Positions 3,576-62,829 of a stretch of 64,000 bases of DNA are shown in pieces; within the stretch, counting starts at the first letter, position 1; each line of letters starts with the position of its first letter. The stretch spans positions 32,001-96,000 of IMG/VR virus record IMGVR_UViG_2840842423_000001. One strand, written 5' to 3'. Source of the stretch: a virus. Its lineage: Duplodnaviria > Caudoviricetes. A program made the position numbers and the translations under genes. The notes beneath the pieces were generated by a model. It did not search any database. It was not told where the DNA came from and worked only from the letters and a program-made list of their open reading frames with translations.

Positions 3576-3849
3576 CGTTTTTAGTCATATAGAGGCGCTA
3601 ATCTCTATACAGTTCGCTTATGAACTTCTACATGTTTCCATATAGTCTAGACTATCTCATCATCCACATAGAGGGATGCTTCCTGTTTCCACTGTCAAAA
3701 GCTTACAGTGTACGCCTTCCGGCTAGTCGTTGAACCTTCTCCTTTAAGGAGCTTGGCTGCTGATTGTCCTCAACATTACTTGTTAGGAGTTCCCAGCAAT
3801 TTAAGAAGTTTTCGCTATTGCATCACTGTCAATAGGGGACTAATTATTA
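3576..3849 (-). ncRNA. group I intron (274 nt, no ORF) in terL Walker B
   Basis: Exon ends GAU with P1 GGAU/GUCC; core AAUUGCUGGGAACUCCU, AAUCAGCAGCCAAG, UUCAACGACUAG, GAGAUAGUCUA; ends AAAACG; splicing gives in-frame ILIVD|EFRMVD. Confidence 0.92.
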
Positions 3850-4131
3850 ATCCACAATTAGGATGTTTGCTCTCTTTCCTCGCGCACCATCGTTCGCTGC
3901 TACAGTTTTAATCCAACTACCATTATGGAATAAAACTTGCGGATCTTTTGAGCCTGTGTTTATATCACTTATTTCTCTTTTTAATCCCGGAGAGTCATGT
4001 CTAATTTCCTCTATCTTTTCAATTACTTCTCTGGATTGGCTACGCAAGCCAGCAGCTATGACTATCTTCGAATTCGGCTTAAGAACCGAAACTACGCAAC
4101 AGTAAATAGCTGTCAAAAAGGTTTTTCCCTG
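3850..4131 (-). CDS. terminase large subunit, exon 2
   Basis: [11 protein letters not shown]...FHNGSWI...[12 protein letters not shown]: second half of Walker A through first half of Walker B. Confidence 0.9.
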
Positions 4132-4507
4132 CAATTTCGTGTTTATATTAAGTCGCCAGTCTTAATACAGATTTTAATCTCTTATGCTTTCACACAAGAA
4201 CAGACTATTTCTTCATCCTCAGCATTATCTGTTAGGAGCAACCCGCTTCCACCACCAGTGGCTTGTGATGTACTTCCTTTCGGAATAGTCGTTGAACGTT
4301 TCTCTATTCGAGACTTCGCTGCATGAACATCCATTGTCTCAACAATTAGGATTTTGTCCGTATGTTATCCCTTTACTTTTTTCTGCTTTCGCTCCTTCAC
4401 GTCTAGGTTTCTTTCATCCTTCCGTTGTGGCAAAAGGGCTTTAGGAGTTGCCTGCAATTCAAGTTGTGCTCTGTGCATGTTTCCATACACACGGGGCAGA
4501 ATTAGTT
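4132..4507 (-). ncRNA. group I intron (~376 nt, no ORF) in terL Walker A
   Basis: P1 GGGGU/GCCCC; core AAUUGCAGGCAACUCCUAAAG, AUGCAGCGAAG, UUCAACGACUAU, GAAAUAGUCUG, P9 with GAAA loop; terminal G at 4132 before CAG GGA AAA ACC. Confidence 0.9.
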
Positions 4508-4784
4508 ACCCCCTCGACGCAAAATACATAAAATAGTTATTAAACATCATCATCATAATCAATATCTGTTGGAACATTTTCAGTTTAATTCCAAAATAGT
4601 CCTCAACAAATCGATGTGGATTGGCTCTATAGAAACTCGTCCACACTCCCACACCTTCCATTAACCGTTCTGACTTTGTTAAATTGTCATTATGTTTGTT
4701 AACATTTCTTCCAGCTTTAAATATGTTGTTACCTTTGTGGCGTTTGTTTCTCTCGGTTTGAAAAGGAACTTGGTTGCTACTCAT
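4508..4784 (-). CDS. terminase large subunit, exon 1
   Basis: [23 protein letters not shown]...FASRG; adenine-binding Q and first half of Walker A; overlaps the stop of the upstream gene. Confidence 0.88.
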
Positions 4785-8334: not shown

Positions 8335-9231
8335 TTAGCTATTATCATTGATATTAAACACATCTTCATTTACTAACTCTTCATAATCCTCTTTATACAT
8401 CCACTTAAATCCTTTATACATTTCCAATATACCAGTACAACACTGTCGAATTAACTGTCTAGTATAACCACTCTCTTGCGCTTGTTTCATAGAACTGTAT
8501 TCAACGATCAACTCCAACTCGCTAGAAAGTTGTACAACTCCTTGAGTTTTTTGATTGTTCTTCGTTCTATCTTTTATTAATTCATTAATGTTAATATCAG
8601 TATCGAACTTGTCTTTGTATAAAAATATACTTCCACCACATGTTCTATATTTACCTTTTAAACATTTCACAATGTTTGTAGCCAGTAAATCGTTCTCTCT
8701 GGCACAATGATTTATATTCTTCCAGTGAATAATAGTTTTATTCTTTATAGCTATTTGGGTAATGGGAATTTCTTGTGATTCATTGTATTCAACTATCATA
8801 TGATAATTCTTAGGTACTTTGCCCTTTAGAGAGTTACTTATATTCTGTTTATGTGATTCAGGAAGCTTCCTCCCTAATTGTATTGCTGAAATCTTCTGTC
8901 TAGACTCTTCGGTATGTTTTAATCCTAAACTCCCGTCCCCACCGAGAGTCATGTTGTAACCAAACTCTTTAATATTTGACTTATATTCATTTATGTAGTA
9001 CATCTCTCGCTCATTTACTATGTCTTCCGAACACTCTTCTAAGATTTCAAATGTAAAGTATTTTTCTCCGTACTTATTCCACGATCTTTGCAAATGTTTG
9101 TTCGGATGATAATCTTTTAGTAATGACGATCGATGCTCGCGTAACCTTTTATTAAGATGTACAGATTTACCGATATAAACTTTTCCGTTAACTGTGTTCG
9201 TTATTTTATATATGCCAGTCTGTTGAGACGT
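8335..9231 (-). CDS. free-standing GIY-YIG homing endonuclease with NUMOD3/NUMOD1-type modules; ACG in place of start codon
   Basis: Frame extends upstream of track ORF: TGIYKITNTVNGKVYIGKS...RLREH; GYNMTLGG, HTEESRQKIS, ATNIVKCLKGK, GFKWMY; RBS GGAGG 8 nt before ACG at 9231. Confidence 0.85.
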   Translation of the reverse strand, partial: TSQQTGIYKITNTVNGKVYIGKSVHLNKRLREHRSSLLKDYHPNKHLQRSWNKYGEKYFTFEILEECSEDIVNEREMYYINEYKSNIKEFGYNMTLGGDGSLGLKHTEESRQKISAIQLGRKLPESHKQNISNSLKGKVPKNYHMIVEYNESQEIPITQIAIKNKTIIHWKNINHCARENDLLATNIVKCLKGKYRTCGGSIFLYKDKFDTDININELIKDRTKNNQKTQGVVQLSSELELIVEYSSMKQAQESGYTRQLIRQCCTGILEMYKGFKWMYKEDYEELVNEDVFNINDNS

Positions 9232-11768: not shown

Positions 11769-12053
11769 TTATTTAACTAGTTCCTTCAAATGTTCTGAAG
11801 CCTTAAATTTTGGAGCCGTCTTAGCCTCAATTTGAATCTCAGATCCATCTTGTGGGTTCCTGCCTTTACGAGCAGCCTTCTCAACTGTGCCCAATTTACC
11901 TAGTCCACCCAACGGAACTTTTTTACCTTCCACAAGTGCATCTTCCACAGTCTCAAATACTCCAGCAATAACTTTCTCTGCCTCTACCTGTTTAATATTC
12001 AACTTTTCTGCTACTGCTTTCTTAAACTCATCTTTTTTCATGTTTACTGACAT
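11769..12053 (-). CDS. HU-family DNA-binding protein (SPbeta YonN-like)
   Basis: ARKGRNPQDGSEIQIEAKTAPKFKASEHLK; ATG at 12053 after AAAGGGAG. Confidence 0.92.
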   Translation of the reverse strand: MSVNMKKDEFKKAVAEKLNIKQVEAEKVIAGVFETVEDALVEGKKVPLGGLGKLGTVEKAARKGRNPQDGSEIQIEAKTAPKFKASEHLKELVK

Positions 12054-12176
12054 AATTGATCTTCTCCCTTTTTCTTCTAATATAATAGTATGTAACTCAC
12101 GTTTATAGACACCCACACCCGAGGGAAGTCATTCTGTCATGTCATGGAATCGAACCATGATACACCCTTCATAACA

Positions 12177-12520
12177 TAATATAAACTTTCCAGCTAATCT
12201 GCCAAGCAGTACTCTCTGAGTCAACAAACAACCACTCATAGACTGTTAATCTTGGATTTTATCGAACTTATCAAATTTGATTCCTAAACTTTACATCAAA
12301 AGAGCTTTAATACTTAAACTTTAAGAAATGAGCTTGTAAACTTTGAGCTTTTATGCTCTTGGGTTTTTATTTGCCTTTATATCTCTGTTATCACACAGGA
12401 GTATAAAGCAAATACTATTTTAATAGACACTCTTCTCTAAAGTATGTAAGTTTTAGGACGTTGCCCACGCCCAAAGGGTGTTTTGATTTAGAAAGTTTCG
12501 ATTAACTGGAAGTTATATTA
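12177..12520 (-). ncRNA. putative structured ncRNA (~345 nt) with closing stem and AAAG(C/U)U(C/U) repeats
   Basis: 5' UAAUAUAACUUCCAGUUAAUC pairs with 3' GAUUAGCUGGAAAGUUUAUAUUA; inner CCAAG/CUUGG stem; six strong short repeats at 12286-12351; no ORF. Confidence 0.6.
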
Positions 12521-12567
12521 AGTTAAATTTATATGTGTATAACCTATTATATGTTATTATTTATCTA

Positions 12568-13191
12568 TTATTCACTAACATTAATTGTAGTAATTGCGTT
12601 GCTCGTCGAGAGCACATGATCCACTTCCGTCAGAAAGTCTTCAATCTTCTGTTCCAACTTTTCAATCTGTGTCTTCAATCCAATAGGATCAATCAACTTA
12701 GCTTCATTTTGCTCCTTAAATGATTTCACTACTGAATCGGTTTGCTGCACATCAGTTTTAGCTTCTTTGCTAAACAAAGTTTCTAGATGCTTATCTAATC
12801 TACGATTCATGTCGTCATTAACATCATCTACACGACTAACAATTTGAGTGTAAGTATTTTTCAACCTATTTAACAAGTGTTCTTCATACTCAATAGAAGA
12901 TTTACGCTCAATTGCTTCTGCAACTGTGTATTTGACTCCTGCAATTTCAACCTTAGTAGTAGCGTTTGACATTACAATAGCTGATTTAACCTCATTTCTA
13001 CGTGCGATTAAATCATTGACTGAATCAAAGTCAGATTTAACCGTTTGTTCTAAATCCTCTTTTGTATCATATCCAGTCATTACCTTTTTACCAACTGAAT
13101 ATCCACCGAATATAGAATCACTGATTTTGCGTGAGATCCTTTTGTTGAGCATTTTGATTTCTGATAAGCTGCGTGTTATTGATATTTCCAT
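12568..13191 (-). CDS. conserved helical hypothetical protein (~207 aa)
   Basis: 'SITRSLSEIKMLNKRI...SNATTKVEIAG..YTVAEAIERK...LIDPIGL...EVDHVLSTSNAITTI'; own promoter and AAAGGAG RBS. Confidence 0.75.
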   Translation of the reverse strand: MEISITRSLSEIKMLNKRISRKISDSIFGGYSVGKKVMTGYDTKEDLEQTVKSDFDSVNDLIARRNEVKSAIVMSNATTKVEIAGVKYTVAEAIERKSSIEYEEHLLNRLKNTYTQIVSRVDDVNDDMNRRLDKHLETLFSKEAKTDVQQTDSVVKSFKEQNEAKLIDPIGLKTQIEKLEQKIEDFLTEVDHVLSTSNAITTINVSE

Positions 13192-13257
13192 ATAAAACAT
13201 CTCCTTTTTATTCTTTGAATTTTATTTGTTGATAAGCAACTATCTGATTCTATATAC

Positions 13258-13286
13258 ATTATACAATATTATTTACTTATAGTCAA
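13258..13286 (-). promoter_or_regulatory. sigma-A promoter with AATATT operator-like motif in spacer
   Basis: TTGACT-17-TATAAT on minus strand. Confidence 0.75.
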
Positions 13287-14246: not shown

Positions 14247-17033
14247 CTATAACTCCACCTTTCTTAGATTGTAACGTTTGTTTAAATATGTAAAACTTCC
14301 AGTCTCATCCTCTACAGGAACACAGATTTCCTTAGTATTACTCTTGATGTTCTGGTATATTTGTTCACCATATATATTCCACAATATATCTTTATTGAAC
14401 TTTCCTTCATCCACATAAAACATATAAATAAGATAGTCTACAGCTTCAACTACATTAGAACAAACTTCATTCATTTCCTTTTTGAATTTTTCATAATGTC
14501 CTATTATTGATATGTATTTTTCTTCGTCGAATCCGTCTTTCTTTGATGAACTATTTAGAAAAGCAAAGCTACTAACGTTGCTTCTGTATCGAGAGTATAC
14601 TTCAACTACTTTCTTATATTTGTCTTCATCTACTCCACTAAAATCACTACTCATCAACAACTGGTGATAAACTTCTTCATTTTTACTCACGATATTCTTA
14701 ATCTTAAAGTCAACTGTCTCGATATATCTACATAGATTGTTCATGACACACTCACTATCATTGACAGGAGAGTATTTTTCAAACAAGTGTAAGAAATCAA
14801 TTTGCTCTTTAGTCTTTCTTTTTAATGATTTAAGTTCTTCTAATGTCATACCAAATTTCTGTTGTGTAGAAACATCATATTTTTTATAATGAGTCTTATA
14901 TTTTCTTTTTGTGTCAGGATAGAGATACGTAAAGAAATATGGATGTTTATCAAGTAAAATACTATTCAAAAATTCCTTTTCGTCCTTGACGCTATCAACA
15001 TCAACACCATTCACCTTTTGATATTTAGTCCAAGGGGAGGGGATACCTTTCACGTTCTCTCCAATTTTTGCTTTATCTATCTGGGCAGACTGCAATTTTG
15101 TACACATGCGGATTCGGTTTAAAGTCACATCATACTCATCTGTGCCTTCTTTTAACTCTGAAAGTAATGCGTACCCAGATGTACTCTTATTTGTTATTGA
15201 GCCGATTATAGAACCGAAACTAAATAAATCTGACTTATATAACGCTTCTTCTGTTAAAATCTGTTTTTCCGGTTTAGGTGCTTCATATACAACAGGTAAT
15301 TCATCCTGATAAACTCCACTAATAACTGTTGGATCAGATGTTGTTGCTAAAATATCATAATCAAAATCCGATCCTGCCCACCTTACAGTTTCATCACCAT
15401 GTATGTTTACGAGGATTCCCGTATAACAATATTTGTACCATTCATTCAGATTTTTACTTTCTTTTAAATCCAACAAAACATGCTCGCTGCGATAGGTGAG
15501 GGGAGACCTCATCGAATCCACTTTCTTAACACCTTTTTTATTCCAGTAGTTTGAATAGTATTCTCCTGCACCCAACAATCCTGTAACATCATCATGACCA
15601 CAAACGTGTTGCATTTGAGCATAGGGATCGCTTACTATAACTTGGAAATTCCCATCTACAATGATGTCTCCAAGGCAGGCACGTTGGATCTTTCGTTTAA
15701 CCATGTCATGAATTTTACGTTTTATATATTTGTCGTTAATCAAGTTGTGGTTTAGCAATAATGATTTAACCCAATAGTTTTCACCATGATTTATTAATCT
15801 ATCAATTTTTTCTTCTGTAACATTCTCACCCATCAAAAACAGAAGGGTGTAGTATATATTTTCTGAGCTAATTCCTGTAATCCAATCCACAAACTTTTCA
15901 GATACTTTTTCTATGTCTTTTTTGTTTAAATTTAAAGTCTGCATAAACTGATAATTCATGGACAATATATCTTTATCTTGTTTAGGAGTATATAATGTAA
16001 CTCCCCATTTCAAATTATTATCTTCACAGTTCTTTTCATACACTTCAATAGAAGGAAACGAGTCCCATAATTTAAACTGACTTTCTGATAAAATTACATC
16101 GATGTCTCTAAGATCAGCGGTAATAGGATTTTCACCTTCGTCTTTATAGGATGTATTAATTGTGTAATTTCCACTATTTTCTTCTTCACAAAATTTATGT
16201 ATATCAAAAGTACAAAGCATTCCTTTAATGTAGTTTTGGCGTATACACCATTGAGCTGGTACATAGTCTAATTCCAACTCCTTTGCCCACTTCTTCGATT
16301 GTTCTACACTTATTAAACCTTGACCGTCAAAACGGTCAAATAACTCAGTGATTGTTGTTTCTTCCATAGTGTCATCTTTGTCCCAATCATCGTTTTCTGT
16401 TACAAAGTGCGCATTAAACTCTGTTTTGCTCTCGTAGTCTGGAACTAAGGCGAATCTCGGTGTAGGTACAACTTTAGTGCTTGAGCCAGCTAACCCCTTA
16501 TATGCATTAAATTTGCTTGGAGCCATTGGAATGGTTTTATCTCTACCATTGTCCATGATTCTGTGCAATTCCTTTACAGTTTTTTCTTCGCAAAAAGTTA
16601 CCGTAGAGGTTCTAGATTGACTAGCAGAAGAGTTAAACCTCTTATATATCTTCCCGTTTAGCCGCAAACCGTTTTTGTACAAGTGAGTGTAGTGGCTATT
16701 ATGATCCATTACAATTGTAATGTATTCCGGCATGTATAGAACTTTATTAATTTTATCTTGTATAGATTGAATTTTTGCAACATTGCTATCTGAATGTTCC
16801 TGTTTTCTTAAGTAGTTTCTTTTCTTGTGCAGTCCTTCTAAATTATCATAATCAATTTCTCTTTTATGTATATCTCTTATTGAACGCAATACTTGGCTAT
16901 CAAACAACGCAATCACTTCGTTATTCTCTTTTGCTTCGTCAAAGGTTAGGTTGATGTCATAATCGAATTCTTTTAACCTCGAAGACTTGAATTTAAATGT
17001 GTAGAATTGTCTGGTTTTCAATAATTCATGCAC
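14247..17033 (-). CDS. yonO: YonO-like single-subunit double-psi-beta-barrel RNA polymerase
   Basis: 928 aa; SASQSR, FDGQGLI, KGML, RSP, catalytic GSDFDYD, QSAQIDKAK; upstream of late operon as in SPbeta. Confidence 0.85.
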   Translation of the reverse strand: MHELLKTRQFYTFKFKSSRLKEFDYDINLTFDEAKENNEVIALFDSQVLRSIRDIHKREIDYDNLEGLHKKRNYLRKQEHSDSNVAKIQSIQDKINKVLYMPEYITIVMDHNSHYTHLYKNGLRLNGKIYKRFNSSASQSRTSTVTFCEEKTVKELHRIMDNGRDKTIPMAPSKFNAYKGLAGSSTKVVPTPRFALVPDYESKTEFNAHFVTENDDWDKDDTMEETTITELFDRFDGQGLISVEQSKKWAKELELDYVPAQWCIRQNYIKGMLCTFDIHKFCEEENSGNYTINTSYKDEGENPITADLRDIDVILSESQFKLWDSFPSIEVYEKNCEDNNLKWGVTLYTPKQDKDILSMNYQFMQTLNLNKKDIEKVSEKFVDWITGISSENIYYTLLFLMGENVTEEKIDRLINHGENYWVKSLLLNHNLINDKYIKRKIHDMVKRKIQRACLGDIIVDGNFQVIVSDPYAQMQHVCGHDDVTGLLGAGEYYSNYWNKKGVKKVDSMRSPLTYRSEHVLLDLKESKNLNEWYKYCYTGILVNIHGDETVRWAGSDFDYDILATTSDPTVISGVYQDELPVVYEAPKPEKQILTEEALYKSDLFSFGSIIGSITNKSTSGYALLSELKEGTDEYDVTLNRIRMCTKLQSAQIDKAKIGENVKGIPSPWTKYQKVNGVDVDSVKDEKEFLNSILLDKHPYFFTYLYPDTKRKYKTHYKKYDVSTQQKFGMTLEELKSLKRKTKEQIDFLHLFEKYSPVNDSECVMNNLCRYIETVDFKIKNIVSKNEEVYHQLLMSSDFSGVDEDKYKKVVEVYSRYRSNVSSFAFLNSSSKKDGFDEEKYISIIGHYEKFKKEMNEVCSNVVEAVDYLIYMFYVDEGKFNKDILWNIYGEQIYQNIKSNTKEICVPVEDETGSFTYLNKRYNLRKVEL

Positions 17034-31912: not shown

Positions 31913-32011
31913 TAAAGTGAGATTTTTCTCACTTTAAAGGTTGCAAACTAAAACAACAAATTGCAGCTTTTAAAGTTAGAAAAATACAATTACAAAAAGG
32001 AGTATTATAAA

Positions 32012-34900: not shown

Positions 34901-34996
34901 TAAATAATAAATATTGTATTGACATTTATATACTCTATATGGTAGAATGTAATTAACAGTTAAGCAACAACAAATATTATAAAAGGTGGCAATCAC

Positions 34997-36862
34997 ATGT
35001 TAAACGTAGAATTAAAAATCAATGACGAATTAAAAGGAATCGAATTATATTTTGACTCTATACCTAATCCAGAGGTTAGAAATACTTTAAAATCAAGTAA
35101 ATTTCGCTTCTCAAGTCGTAAAAAATGTTGGTATGCGAAACAAAATGAAGATACTTTTAAAATAGCTAACGCATTAACAAATAGTAATATTACAACAACA
35201 GATACACAAAATGCAGCAATTAAGAAAACAACCAACAAAAATACACTATCTCTATGGGAAGCTACACAATGGATAGATATAGAAGTTAATAACAATCAAG
35301 AAACAAAACAAATGGCAAAGGAAATAAGACAACATCTTAAAAAACGTTTTCCACAATGTAAAATAAGCGTTACAAGCGATTACAACCATATCAATGTAAC
35401 CATTAAACAATCACCATATAATGAAGATAGCCAGTATTTAAAAGCTATTAGAAACTATTGTAACAACTTAGTTAATGCGTATAAACATTGCTACAATGCA
35501 GGCGATCCATATACAGACATTCCTGCAAGCTATAATTTCTATTTCTTCAATACAAGTGTTAACTATGATTACAACCAAACAGAAGTCACGGAAGAAGTTA
35601 AAAAGAATATGGAATTATTTGATCAACAACAGGCATTATATGAGCAAGCAGAAGAAGCAAGAAAAGAAGAAGAGTATCAAGAATACATGAAACAACAAGA
35701 GTTACGCAATATTGAATATAAAAAGCAACAAGAAGAAACACAGAAGCAAGTTGAACATATTAACAATAGTATTAACGTAAAATCATTAGAAGATGATAAA
35801 CAATACTATATTATTGGTGCAGAATTCGCAAACTTAAATAAAAACAATACTTTGGATCAATATATAGAAGAAGTACAAAAAGGTGATTATTCACTTGAAA
35901 ATGTAAAGGTTACAAAAGAGCTGCATTTTGACAATCAAGAAGCATTAACAAATTATTCCAATATGTTACTAAACAATTTTGAATTTTTACAAGAGACAGG
36001 AGGAAGCTATACAGAGGATAACCGTATTAATTCAATGACAGACTTTCACAACATGGATAAAATGGAAAGAAACACCGTACAATGGAATTTAACGGGTGTA
36101 GCAGTATTCTACAATGATAAATTACAATTTGTTATAGATGCACAAGGACATGACTATGCACGTTATGTTGGATTAACTGATAACGCAACAATACAAATAG
36201 ATTTTACTTTTGATCAAGTACTAGAAGGTGAAGAACTTCAAGAATTAAAATTAAAAGCTGACGAACTGGAAAGCATTTCTACTGATACAATAACAGAATT
36301 AAATATAATTGACACATGGCAAACTGAACACTGGACAGAATACAAGGACACCATAAAAGATAAATTAAAACAGTATCAATTTAAACTAACTAAAGGTATC
36401 ATACAACAATTAGAAATAGAGTCACTCAAAACTAACATGTATAAACTGTTAATCGAAGTAGACGGCATACAGGATCAATTTATGGAAGCTAATATTAAAC
36501 AAGGCGAAAAGCTTACACTATTCTATATATCAGATTGGGGAAGTATAGTTACAAGTAGAATTACTTTTGATAATTGTATCCCAACAAAATACGCACAGTA
36601 TGACAACGCTATTAAATTAACATTTACACCAGAACGAAAAAGAAAGTTACATTATAACTATTTTCATTCCACACTATTAGTATATAAAGGATGGCACGAA
36701 CTACCAGAAGAAGTATTACACACTGTAGAACATACTGGCAATATGAGAATAACAAAAAGTAAATACCATTCAGTCGATAATAGGCAATATGATGAGATAT
36801 TAAGCCATTATAAGCGACAGGATATTATTCCAATCATAAACACCTACAAGCCAGTATTTTAA
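34997..36862 (+). CDS. polyvalent-type protein with LPD29-like domain
   Basis: 'AKEIRQHLKKRFPQCKISVTSDYNHINVTI...DPYTD' and N-terminal 'GIELYFDSIP..EVRNTLKSSKFRFS..KKCWY' modules. Confidence 0.6.
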   Translation: MLNVELKINDELKGIELYFDSIPNPEVRNTLKSSKFRFSSRKKCWYAKQNEDTFKIANALTNSNITTTDTQNAAIKKTTNKNTLSLWEATQWIDIEVNNNQETKQMAKEIRQHLKKRFPQCKISVTSDYNHINVTIKQSPYNEDSQYLKAIRNYCNNLVNAYKHCYNAGDPYTDIPASYNFYFFNTSVNYDYNQTEVTEEVKKNMELFDQQQALYEQAEEARKEEEYQEYMKQQELRNIEYKKQQEETQKQVEHINNSINVKSLEDDKQYYIIGAEFANLNKNNTLDQYIEEVQKGDYSLENVKVTKELHFDNQEALTNYSNMLLNNFEFLQETGGSYTEDNRINSMTDFHNMDKMERNTVQWNLTGVAVFYNDKLQFVIDAQGHDYARYVGLTDNATIQIDFTFDQVLEGEELQELKLKADELESISTDTITELNIIDTWQTEHWTEYKDTIKDKLKQYQFKLTKGIIQQLEIESLKTNMYKLLIEVDGIQDQFMEANIKQGEKLTLFYISDWGSIVTSRITFDNCIPTKYAQYDNAIKLTFTPERKRKLHYNYFHSTLLVYKGWHELPEEVLHTVEHTGNMRITKSKYHSVDNRQYDEILSHYKRQDIIPIINTYKPVF

Positions 36863-51965: not shown

Positions 51966-53012
51966 ATGTTGGCTGAAAAGGTTGTACCAATTAAAAATGA
52001 AAATGATGATGGTAGTAAAAGAGGATTCAATACAGAAGTATATGATCAGATTATGAGATTCATCAGAGACTTCTCAAGATCAAGTGAGAATACTGGATCT
52101 GCATATGAAAGAGATATTAGAAACTTCTTTCTTAAAACTAGAGACAAACAAATTGAACATTTAATCAAAAATGATTTAGAATATACAATAGAAGAGTTTG
52201 AGGATTACTATGCTTATCTTATCGATGAACGTAAAGTCTCTATTGTTACAGCGAACAGATATATTGGAGCTATAAGTGAATGTATAAAACACTTAAGAAG
52301 AAGAAGGCTGATTAATGATATATCCTTTTTAGACATTAAGAAGCACTCGGGAACGACTGACAGATACGGTATACTAACACTCAATGAAGTTGAGAAGATG
52401 GCAGAATTAGCTTCTAAACAAGGCAGAGGGAACATAGGAAGAATTAAGCAGCTGATGATACTCTTTGCATTAGATACTTGCGCAAGGCGGAATGATTGTC
52501 TTACAATCAAATGGTCTAACTTTACAGTGAATGAACATGATGTAGGTATTCACATGATTGGAAAAGGTAACAAAGACTTTAAACCTTCAATTAGTAAAGA
52601 ATTTTATAATGAGTTGTTGACTCTTAAACAATCTGAGAGTGAGTTTGTTTTCAATATACATGTTAATACAGTTAATAGAATGATGGATGATTTAAGAAGA
52701 GACATGAATATCCCAAAAGAAAGAAATATTGTATTCCATTCATTTAAGAAGACTGGTGTACAGTTTATTTGGAAAAAGACTGGTGACATTAATCAAGCTA
52801 GGAAAGCAGCCAATCACAGCAGTATCAAAACAACAGATATTTATATCAATAGAGAAGAGAATTACGGTATCATGGGTGCTATTTCATCTGGATCAAGTGT
52901 TGATGAAGAATTGTTTGAGGGAGCTAGTCATGAAGAATTATTGAAAGCAATTAGAGGATTAGGAAAAGACCAACAGATGTATATTAATTTACAATTAAAC
53001 AAACAAAAATAA
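51966..53012 (+). CDS. yopP: tyrosine-recombinase-fold protein (SPbeta YopP-like)
   Basis: SAM-like N-terminus (SENTGSAYERDIRNFF), ARRND, GKGNK, FHSFKK, ANHSS..TTDIY; synteny. Confidence 0.75.
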   Translation: MLAEKVVPIKNENDDGSKRGFNTEVYDQIMRFIRDFSRSSENTGSAYERDIRNFFLKTRDKQIEHLIKNDLEYTIEEFEDYYAYLIDERKVSIVTANRYIGAISECIKHLRRRRLINDISFLDIKKHSGTTDRYGILTLNEVEKMAELASKQGRGNIGRIKQLMILFALDTCARRNDCLTIKWSNFTVNEHDVGIHMIGKGNKDFKPSISKEFYNELLTLKQSESEFVFNIHVNTVNRMMDDLRRDMNIPKERNIVFHSFKKTGVQFIWKKTGDINQARKAANHSSIKTTDIYINREENYGIMGAISSGSSVDEELFEGASHEELLKAIRGLGKDQQMYINLQLNKQK

Positions 53013-53080
53013 AATTGGTAAAACTTACCTTTACATTAATTAGATAACAGTATATTATAAAATTAGAGGAGTGTTAAATT

Positions 53081-54421
53081 GTGAAACAAGATAAAACTCG
53101 TCAAGAATTAGAAGAAAATTTGATACAACCGACTTTATCAGTGAAAAGAAAACGAAAGATTGTACAAGAGATTAAAGATAGCTTATTCAATAATCACAAA
53201 ATAATTGGTGGAAATACACAATCTTGGATCAATGATCCAGAAACTGAATTACCATTGTTAGATTGGAGAATACTATACTTATTTGCCAAACAAATCCATT
53301 CTAAAATTAATCAATCTAATATTAACCCGGATCATTTTTACACAGAGGTAGAAGCTAAGAAGGCACAACAGTATACCGGAAACTTAACAATAATGGAAGA
53401 TGTATCACTTCCTATGGTATTCAATGACGTTACAGAATTAAGATATGGAACGTATTTAACTCATATTAGCGCAAAACTACTAGCTCAAATGAGTTCAACA
53501 TTGTTAAATTATAATTTTGACATACAAAGAGAAGCGACCAAAATAACAAGGAACAATGAGACAATCAAAGAAGCTACTTTAGTTTTGAAAAACGTATTAG
53601 AAATTAAAAGTCATTTAAAACAAGATTCATTAGAATCAACAAATATTGTATTTAATGCAGCAATAGGTACAGCAGACGATGGAGATGAATTAACTTACAA
53701 TCCAGAAACTAAACAACTACAGATTAACAAGGGCACAATTATTGACATTGTAGATGGATATCACAGGTGCAAAGGAAGTGAGTTAGCTCTAAACGAAAAT
53801 CCAGATATCAATTTTAAATTTTCATTAATTATATTAAACTATACAGATGACCGAGCTGCCAATTATCAAGGGCAGTTAGCAGAAGCAACACCAATGTCTA
53901 AACCAAAGAAGAAACAACTGTCATCTAAAAGACATTCTGATGCTATTGTAAGAGAACTAATGACACAATCCGAACTAAAGGACAAAGTGGCTGTTGCCCG
54001 TGTTCCAAGTGCACGTAATAAAGAATTAGTAACTTACGATGTCTTATCTGATACCATTGATGAACAATTTAAATTGGATAGAATGATTGATGTTCATAAA
54101 GTAACTAATTATCTAAAAACTTATTTTAATATCCTGTTAGGTGAATATGCAGAACAATTCATAGAGAACCCTATTGAGTGGAAAAAGAAATCGGTCATGG
54201 TTGAGAATAACATGTTTATAGGCTATATTGTTTTAGCAAGAAGAATGTATGAACTAGGAATAGATGCAGTAAACGTTATTGATTATATAGATAGTATTGA
54301 TTTTGATAAAAATAACGAGTTGTGGCAAGATATAGGATTCTTAAATGAAGATAAAAATTTAAATAAAACTATGTCAGCGAGAAATGCTATAGAAAACTAC
54401 TTTAAACAATTGGAATTGTAA
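53081..54421 (+). CDS. yopQ: DndB/DGQHR-like protein (SPbeta YopQ-like)
   Basis: YNFDIQRE, IVDGYHR motif; between yopP and yopR. Confidence 0.7.
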   Translation: MKQDKTRQELEENLIQPTLSVKRKRKIVQEIKDSLFNNHKIIGGNTQSWINDPETELPLLDWRILYLFAKQIHSKINQSNINPDHFYTEVEAKKAQQYTGNLTIMEDVSLPMVFNDVTELRYGTYLTHISAKLLAQMSSTLLNYNFDIQREATKITRNNETIKEATLVLKNVLEIKSHLKQDSLESTNIVFNAAIGTADDGDELTYNPETKQLQINKGTIIDIVDGYHRCKGSELALNENPDINFKFSLIILNYTDDRAANYQGQLAEATPMSKPKKKQLSSKRHSDAIVRELMTQSELKDKVAVARVPSARNKELVTYDVLSDTIDEQFKLDRMIDVHKVTNYLKTYFNILLGEYAEQFIENPIEWKKKSVMVENNMFIGYIVLARRMYELGIDAVNVIDYIDSIDFDKNNELWQDIGFLNEDKNLNKTMSARNAIENYFKQLEL

Positions 54422-62697: not shown

Positions 62698-62771
62698 GTA
62701 CCCTTAGCTTAGTTGGTCAGAGCCATCGGCTCATAACCGATAGGTCGTAGGTTCGAATCCTACAGGGTACA
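62698..62771 (+). tRNA. tRNA-Ile2 (anticodon CAT; lysidine type), CCA not encoded
   Basis: Acceptor GTACCCT/AGGGTAC, anticodon arm ATCGG-CTCATAA-CCGAT, T arm GTAGG-TTCGAAT-CCTAC; body resembles Bacillus tRNA-Ile(CAU); Met not excluded. Confidence 0.85.
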
Positions 62772-62829
62772 CTTTAAATTTTTTACAATGGGTAAATAGT
62801 GCTATACTATATAATAAGGAGATGTGAAT

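Follow-up and report, generated by a model that had tools for sequence, protein, structure and literature searches.

The stretch of DNA analyzed here, called the window in the following, comprises 64,000 nucleotides (nt) of a virus of the Caudoviricetes (positions 32,001 to 96,000 of the IMG/VR record IMGVR_UViG_2840842423_000001) and carries on its minus strand a gene of the phrog_1491 family (12568..13200) that is followed by a structured non-coding RNA. An initial annotation, made from the letters of this DNA, had described both as a self-contained cassette in which a promoter drives a helical protein of about 207 amino acids (aa) and a closed RNA with short repeats lies downstream of the gene, and this arrangement of gene plus RNA is borne out by our analysis. 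The reading frame spans 210 aa from the ATG at 13200, but the probable start is the ATG at 13191, because this codon is located 9 nt past a GGAG; the likely product of 207 aa has the same length as the database copy P0002 of the protein. Upstream of the gene the sigma-70-like promoter TTGACT-17-TATAAT (13258..13286, minus strand) is indeed present and agrees with 11 of 12 consensus positions, although it has to be read as a consensus match only, as the promoter scan as a whole yielded 9 sites compared to 9.1 in shuffled sequences and shows no excess. In the interval between gene and RNA of the window no convincing promoter was seen. The RNA itself occupies positions 12188-12511 of the minus strand (about 324 nt), its closing stem can be extended to 12177-12520, and it occurs in the window in one copy only.

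Linkage of the RNA to the phrog_1491 gene

It is almost certain that a real structured RNA is linked to the phrog_1491 gene, whose product we refer to as the partner protein. Gene and RNA co-occur in both search directions and in phages of Bacillota, Proteobacteria, Cyanobacteria and others, and in most loci the gene is followed by 300-700 nt that are free of open reading frames (ORFs). With the spacer of the window alone as nhmmer query, 12 of the 70 other distinct downstream regions were matched at E <= 3e-5, and the iterated RNA profile matched 70 of 71 distinct downstream regions. A scan of the whole loci on both strands with this profile (86 sequences, i.e. 85 related loci and the window; 403,404 bases) gave 87 matches, all of which are located on the strand of the gene and start at most 620 nt from the gene stop, with none elsewhere in the loci. 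A similar downstream element therefore accompanies the homologous genes of all 85 related loci, and in an independent set of bacterial-genome loci the profile matched 77 of 80; two of the remaining three have 347-587 nt of downstream DNA and one has none. The reverse search started from the RNA: a degenerate pattern of the 3' domain selected 118 loci, 44 of which gave a match to the RNA profile. Forty-two of these 44 carry a partner-protein gene upstream on the same strand, and the two others sit at most 300 nt from the start of the locus, at the edge of the available DNA. One locus of this set has the partner-protein gene and no RNA match at E < 1e-5.

Using the partner protein as tblastn query we found 745 phage records, of which 738 cover at least 80% of the query. 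The matches include T5-like phages of Salmonella and Escherichia, Otagovirus phages of Pseudomonas (phiPsa374 and relatives) and Vibrio phages as well as Bacillus phages including G, the Lactococcus phages LW81, AM5 and P1048, and jumbo Erwinia phages. Relatives of the protein are also present in 352 IMG/VR stretches and in 172 stretches of species-representative genomes. Phage T5 itself (AY692264) has the cassette: the partner-protein frame is located at 35306-35926 on the minus strand, and the RNA at about 34950-35239 is unannotated, though the record lists six other small T5 RNAs. In the T5 record of locus L086 the annotated coding sequence T5p083 runs on the plus strand at 15160-15957, whereas the conserved phrog_1491 frame is found on the minus strand at 15304-15939; with the family encoded there, T5p083 was apparently called on the wrong strand. 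Homologues together with the RNA were also seen on three contigs (L153, L164 and L201) binned as metagenome-assembled genomes of Bathyarchaeia, Parabacteroides and Phocaeicola, which are probably phage contigs swept into these bins and not evidence of those hosts. In various phages, further candidate RNAs of Rfam, namely RAGATH-36, skipping-rope, drum and FuFi-1, lie within 1-2 kb of the cassette (L002 1931-2058; L051/L056 ~1642-1732; L011 3413-3520; L069 1648-1820).

The partner protein is a full-length match to the phrog_1491 profile (E 2.1e-66), with residues 5-209 aligned to positions 4-210 of the 211 in the profile. Scans against Pfam, NCBIfam and PADLOC assigned it to no family and returned only sub-threshold coiled-coil matches in Pfam, and all of the 253 homologues are either named hypothetical or bear the unverified PHROG label 'tail fiber protein', for which we found no support. 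The AlphaFold model (predicted local distance difference test 82.9, predicted template modeling score 0.77, alignment of 63 sequences) is a bundle of long helices, five of them main ones, with a small sheet of four 4-residue strands. A helical protein without a nameable catalytic motif had been proposed initially. A Foldseek search of the model against the PDB gave no meaningful relative (best E 0.097), the best hit of the wide VIA search (syntaxin, Z 8.8) stays within the range of generic helical bundles, the ESM Atlas returned only unnamed viral clusters, and a sequence-profile search of the PDB found nothing below E 0.03. Around the invariant TVAEAI motif the protein has a conserved basic and polar patch formed by R68, K72, S78, N79, T82 and K100.

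Architecture of the RNA and its heptamer tract

For the structural alignment 45 distinct RNAs were kept of 54 after nine near-duplicates had been dropped; in the relatives the length of the RNA ranges from 264 to 464 nt. The two strands of the closing stem P1 are located at 12500..12520 (5' strand, core 12511-12500) and 12177..12199 (3' strand, core 12199-12188), both on the minus strand, and the closed RNA of about 345 nt with pairing ends that the initial annotation had described is thereby recovered. The minimum free energy fold of the window RNA reproduces this end pairing at -100.8 kcal/mol (z -3.65), and none of 100 shuffles folded as well. From the 45 RNAs, RNAalifold obtained P1 as a stem of 15 bp together with the 5-bp stem Pa, in which CCAAG at 12255-12251 pairs with CUUGG at 12206-12202; this stem had been pointed out before, is real and covaries strongly. 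Taken together, 97.3% of the P1 and Pa cells are paired, a value that none of 500 shuffles attained (59.5%); both sides are changed in 303 cells, and slid controls stay at 49% or below, so that the expected covariation of the closing stem is found. As G-U pairs account for 86 of the 826 P1 and Pa cells and correspond to mismatches on the other strand, the fold exists on the sense strand only.

The 5' strand of P1 leads into a conserved junction J (GAAAC...AAAUCAAAAC, 12479..12499, minus strand), which in the family has the consensus CGAAAAC-N4-AAACUU after P1. Its first part (12496-12490) pairs with the segment after the hairpin Pb (12217-12211) and forms helix a, or P2, and its second part (12488-12484) may pair with the loop of Pb as helix c. 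The partners of both helices belong to the 3' domain (GAUAAAAUCC, 12200..12263, minus strand), which contains Pa, the Pb hairpin (12238-12217, with a 12-nt loop) and the 3' strand of helix a. In 42 of the 45 sequences (L039, L053 and L055 were dropped owing to truncation or insertions), the native partners of helices a and c form 6.14 and 6.67 contiguous pairs, respectively, compared to 4.31 and 5.09 for non-native partners, a difference reached by 0 of 2000 permutations. On the MAFFT alignment the two long-range helices are 69.7% paired versus 53.9% in the control, with 0 of 500 as high. An H-type pseudoknot (12456..12478, minus strand; S1 CCC/GGG, S2 GGGCGU/ACGUCC) follows the junction. In 29 of the 45 homologues such a pseudoknot, built from unrelated stem sequences, starts 19-23 nt past the CG of the junction. 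The pseudoknot scores 12.2 on average compared to 6.0 in shuffles, and 21 of the 45 beat the best of 20 shuffles. The sole terminator-like call of the region, at 12467-12481 on the plus strand, is the antisense of pseudoknot stem S2 and no real terminator. Downstream of the pseudoknot lies a variable insert (12355..12455, minus strand) that measures 29-206 nt in the homologues. The internal hairpin claimed initially does exist at 12412-12370, but falls into this non-conserved insert, and the pseudoknot at 12478-12456, the long-range helices between junction and 3' domain and a minihelix at 12176-12135 had been missed. The covarying helices P1, Pa, a and c together with the 5' H-type pseudoknot give the RNA a compact core, which presents an unstructured tract as a loop of about 97-110 nt.

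This tract, A-rich and in the window 99 nt long (12256..12354, minus strand), is made up of roughly 13-14 AAAG(N)U(N) heptamers, the seventh of which is followed by a U-rich break. The heptamers reported for the window are found where they had been placed, at 12351-12345, 12344-12338, 12336-12330, 12322-12316, 12308-12302 and 12292-12286 of the minus strand. In the alignment the tract lies between the variable insert and the motif AUAAAAUCC, is composed of 42% A and 33% U, and reads as seven AAAG-N-U-N units, the U-rich break, and then four or five more. Its period is conserved, since the self-identity over the 45 homologues amounts to 0.487, 0.450 and 0.409 at lags of 7, 14 and 21 compared to about 0.318 after shuffling, and its length is confined to 95-110 nt in 41 of the 45 and to exactly 97 nt in 12, next to an insert of highly variable length. 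Among 27 distinct T5-like loci 9.4% of the tract columns vary versus 58% of the third codon positions of the gene; the corresponding values of the same loci are 10.8% for first and second codon positions and 50% for the variable insert. Judged from this pattern of substitutions, the tract is under purifying selection in T5-like phages. The low share of varying columns indicates that the exact letters matter and that the tract is no diversifying guide. The N positions of the heptamers are lineage-specific, yet kept among the T5-like phages. Mimicry of a T-loop or anticodon loop by the heptamers was also considered and rejected, as the middle U is the sole invariant position.

In most loci the RNA starts 5-60 nt past the stop codon, and in T5-like phages 13 nt past it, which makes co-transcription with the gene probable. 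Of 54 distinct loci, 7 have a tRNA that starts at most 20 nt from the 3' end of the RNA, 14 have one that starts at most 150 nt from it, and 35 have a tRNA within 2 kb of the cassette RNA. In two of the 54 a genuine tRNA is even located inside the variable insert, between pseudoknot and heptamer tract (L050 2707-2778, L079 2713-2786); if these tRNAs are processed out, the RNA would be left as two pieces joined by P1. The RNAs of phiPsa374 and pVp-1 end, as judged by eye, in terminator-like hairpins with U runs. In the window, P1 is directly followed by a tRNA-like minihelix (12135..12176, minus strand) with an acceptor-like stem of 7 bp stacked on a T-arm-like stem of 6 bp with the loop UUCGAUU, but without D or anticodon arm, and ARAGORN does not call it a tRNA. 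A minihelix of the same shape and other sequence is found 3' of the RNA in the close relatives L001, L008 and L009. It may serve as a handle for RNase P or the CCA-adding enzyme.

Known RNA families and competing explanations

An Rfam scan of the window RNA returned nothing at the gathering threshold and only chance-level snoRNA and miRNA matches at E <= 10. For the same region ARAGORN and Rfam gave no tRNA, transfer-messenger RNA (tmRNA), CRISPR-like or intron model, in agreement with the initial annotation, which had set aside CRISPR, tRNA and intron. Its view that the element is undescribed holds for the whole RNA, which is absent from Rfam, but not for the first 86 nt, which are catalogued as RAGATH-27 in one lineage. 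This candidate motif (RF03100, 86-nt model, threshold of 76.1 bits) passes with 77-95 bits in four of 55 other loci scanned with Rfam (L052, L066, L069 and L082) and has no match in the window, neither at the gathering threshold nor at E <= 10. In the four loci it covers the 5' end of the RNA, namely part of the 5' strand of P1, CCGAAAACUU.AAACUA and the pseudoknot hairpin, whereas the model consists of one hairpin without the P1 pairing, the tract, the 3' domain or a link to a protein. Therefore, we regard RAGATH-27 as a fragment of the cassette RNA family, which makes this Rfam entry the 5' end of a much larger RNA. There is also a certain likeness to tmRNA, in which a pseudoknot is likewise followed by an A-rich single-stranded region, a long closing helix and an adjoining element that resembles T-arm and acceptor. 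However, the minihelix of the cassette folds locally and 3' of the closing stem instead of being formed by the two ends of the RNA, and the 7-nt period allows no conserved tag reading frame. As candidates, tmRNA, RNase P RNA and a Y RNA-like element (suggested by the T-arm and an AAAUCC...GGCUG motif) were rejected because of the wrong topology and the lack of a model match. A literature search found no paper on RAGATH-27 and, in the portions of text it could reach, no description of the cassette RNA or its protein, although the 10,006 candidate viral RNAs of one survey may include pieces of it (PMC10690425).

On balance we slightly favor the reading, taken as a whole, that a conserved pseudoknotted non-coding RNA and the partner protein form a ribonucleoprotein whose heptamer tract holds many copies of the protein; for the specific model of many copies on the tract we see about equal grounds for and against. 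The promoter at 13286-13258 would drive gene and RNA as one transcript, and the RNA would presumably be cut from the 3' region of the mRNA, either in the long P1 stalk by an RNase III-like activity, as with rRNA precursors, or by RNase P and tRNA-maturation enzymes at the following tRNA or tRNA-like minihelix. Several copies of the partner protein could then bind the heptamer tract with about one copy per 7 nt, the contact being made by the conserved basic patch R67, R68, K72 and K100 beside the SNAxT...TVAEAIERK motif, and the ribonucleoprotein that results would have a fixed stoichiometry. Binding of the repeats by the protein is what we infer from the strict co-occurrence in both directions. 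In large lytic phages the cassette is at home in early regions and among tRNA genes, and this points to a role in trans, either in the takeover of the host or in the metabolism of RNA, tRNA or translation. Several points weigh against this ribonucleoprotein. The partner protein is acidic (pI 5.4; family median 5.64) and has no RNA-binding fold recognizable by Foldseek, VIA or the PDB profile search. In addition, two of the 80 bacterial-genome loci gave no RNA match in 347-587 nt of downstream DNA. On the structural side, the ends of P1 were picked by our own helix search, which inflates its paired percentage and does not apply to Pa, a and c; helices a, b and c reach no more than about 70% pairing on the unrefined alignment, and helix b hardly exceeds its non-native control (32 of 2000 permutations). 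Finally, the co-occurrence would also be expected for a mere cis element of this mRNA.

Such an element in the 3' untranslated region would remain part of the mRNA and act on its stability or translation, perhaps with feedback by the protein and without a function in trans; this explanation appears improbable to us. It agrees with the strict linkage of RNA and gene and with the short distance to the stop codon, which leaves little room for a promoter of its own, and no convincing one was seen there in the window. However, known 3' stabilizers need far less than some 60 conserved base pairs, a pseudoknotted core and a tract of 14 repeats with a locked length, the tRNAs directly 3' of the RNA or, in L050 and L079, within it imply cleavage from the mRNA, and the tract is as conserved as the non-synonymous codon sites. 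The position near tRNAs is also a feature of GOLLD and ROOL, which are described as RNAs of phages and prophages near tRNA islands that sometimes contain a tRNA in a linker (PMC12286853). The cassette RNA is likewise phage-borne, has tRNA islands nearby in many loci and a tRNA inside in two, and is multiply pseudoknotted, so that an RNA-centered machine of this type, which self-assembles or acts alone and for which the protein is a chaperone or just a co-expressed neighbor, has to be considered; we think it rather unlikely. In contrast to GOLLD and ROOL, which have no obligate partner gene, the cassette RNA is smaller and always accompanied by its gene where upstream DNA is present, and neither of the two Rfam models matches in the window or the 55 loci scanned. 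Furthermore, the unstructured repeat tract takes up one third of the RNA and makes better sense as a platform for a ligand than as an architectural element. A ligand other than the partner protein is assumed if the tract is a sponge or decoy that soaks up a single-strand nucleic-acid binder of the host or the phage (a single-strand-binding protein with a site of about 7 nt, Hfq or S1) or a defense nuclease. In the operator of T4 gene 32, a pseudoknot lies beside unstructured A/U-rich repeats which a protein could coat cooperatively, and the site of gp32 is about 7 nt. Gp32 is described as binding a pseudoknot upstream of its own gene (PMC10690425). The cassette follows a similar logic, with a pseudoknot that adjoins unstructured A/U-rich repeats of 7-nt period which a protein could coat, but it is a closed RNA downstream of a gene and not part of a 5' leader, and it is about ten times larger. 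As a decoy would leave the strict linkage to this one protein unexplained and the same motif is kept in phages of very different hosts, we give this explanation little credit.

The closest system in logic is VIPR, whose vrRNA combines 9-16 short tandem repeats of alternating conserved and variable positions with a structured pseudoknotted tail and is bound by an oligomerizing phage protein of the RAMP type (bioRxiv 10.64898/2026.04.26.720920). Both systems share a phage protein, a tract of about 100 nt of short tandem repeats and a pseudoknotted region. By analogy, the heptamers might be a fixed non-contiguous guide, in which the protein holds AAAG and U and the N positions read a nucleic-acid target, and the N positions indeed vary between lineages and are conserved within the T5-like phages. 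We nevertheless find such a guide very doubtful. Compared to VIPR, the repeat is a 7-nt AAAGNUN and not a 5-nt YNNGG, the tract is enclosed in a larger closed RNA, and the protein model is helical and not of the RRM/RAMP type of Vipr; an RRM-type match was found neither by Foldseek nor by VIA. Hypervariability as in VIPR is ruled out by the small fraction of varying tract columns among close relatives, and the longest contiguous antisense match to the tract in the window (14 nt) lies within the 12-16 nt of 30 shuffles, a gapped-target search not being part of this comparison. The initial annotation had drawn an analogy to type III toxin-antitoxin pairs, in which a toxic protein is neutralized by a repeat RNA. 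In these systems the antitoxin RNAs (ToxI, CptI, TenpI) consist of repeats of about 34-45 nt that are located upstream of the endoribonuclease toxin behind a terminator. The cassette shares with them only the general picture of a protein gene beside a tandem-repeat RNA: its repeats are 7 nt long and lie 3' of the gene, no ToxN/AbiQ-type toxin or other defense match was obtained with PADLOC, Pfam or NCBIfam, although a missing match is no proof, and the Foldseek and VIA fold searches gave generic helical bundles and no nuclease fold. Moreover, 745 records of lytic phages have the cassette as a core feature, and it belongs to early and tRNA regions rather than defense islands. Therefore, the analogy does not hold, and a pair of this kind is most improbable. 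The AT-rich ORF-free region with short periodic repeats beside replication genes could finally be thought of as an element that acts at the level of DNA, such as phased A-tracts, origin iterons or a protein-binding array without any functional RNA. We attach next to no weight to this idea, because 7 bp is not a helical repeat, the long-range helices covary and include G-U cells that are mismatches on the other strand, all 87 profile matches are on the strand of the gene, and tRNAs and terminators bound the element.

Going beyond the ribonucleoprotein favored here, one may speculate on a new class of phage particles in which a pseudoknot-locked RNA offers about fourteen heptamers in register to an oligomer of the helical partner protein. 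The N positions of the heptamers would be read out, be it as a fixed non-contiguous guide, as a template or as a ruler, and the particle would act on nucleic acids of the host or a competitor or on tRNA and translation. We consider this unlikely; if true, such a particle would act in T5-like, SPbeta-like and many other phages. Irrespective of this, the cassette RNA is a widespread structured RNA with an obligate partner protein that has been described until now as a fragment only. If the ribonucleoprotein reading holds, a large complex RNA and its dedicated protein are unannotated in hundreds of sequenced phages including the model phage T5. The ornate phage RNAs associated with tRNA islands would then comprise a third class in addition to GOLLD and ROOL, the first one whose protein partner is obligate. 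The locked length of the array of 7-nt repeats hints at a particle with a defined stoichiometry, which might act, for instance, in host takeover, in the control of tRNA and translation or in nucleic-acid recognition, and T5 with its tractable host E. coli offers a direct test of this question.

Genomic setting of the cassette in the window

In the window, the partner-protein gene is followed by 450 nt without an ORF and then by an HU-type gene (PF00216; ATG at 12053), PhoH and an exonuclease. Upstream of the cassette are located the genes for an unknown protein of 271 aa and, two genes away, for a YonO-like single-subunit RNA polymerase of 928 aa (14247-17033, minus strand; PF05183, phrog_8308). 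The neighboring genes on the plus strand encode RecD2- and UvrD-type helicases and do not form the late operon that had been assumed there initially. A stretch identical to the partner-protein gene of the window is present in NZ_NPOA01000004.1 (Virgibacillus profundi; L127). The YonO-like polymerase with an HU-type gene just 3' of the RNA resembles the yonO-yonN arrangement of SPbeta, and together with the Virgibacillus match we take this as a sign that the window is an SPbeta-like prophage.

Some further features of the window were noted in passing. The replication-gene region contains two group I introns on the minus strand (3628-3859 and 4181-4540; Rfam 91.9 and 52.2 bits) and a gene for a homing endonuclease of the NUMOD/HNH type (8335-9093, minus strand). 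A tyrosine integrase gene adjoins the gene of a DndB-like protein (51966-54421, plus strand), and a tRNA-Met gene near the end of the window (62698-62772, plus strand) could mark the region of a prophage attachment site.

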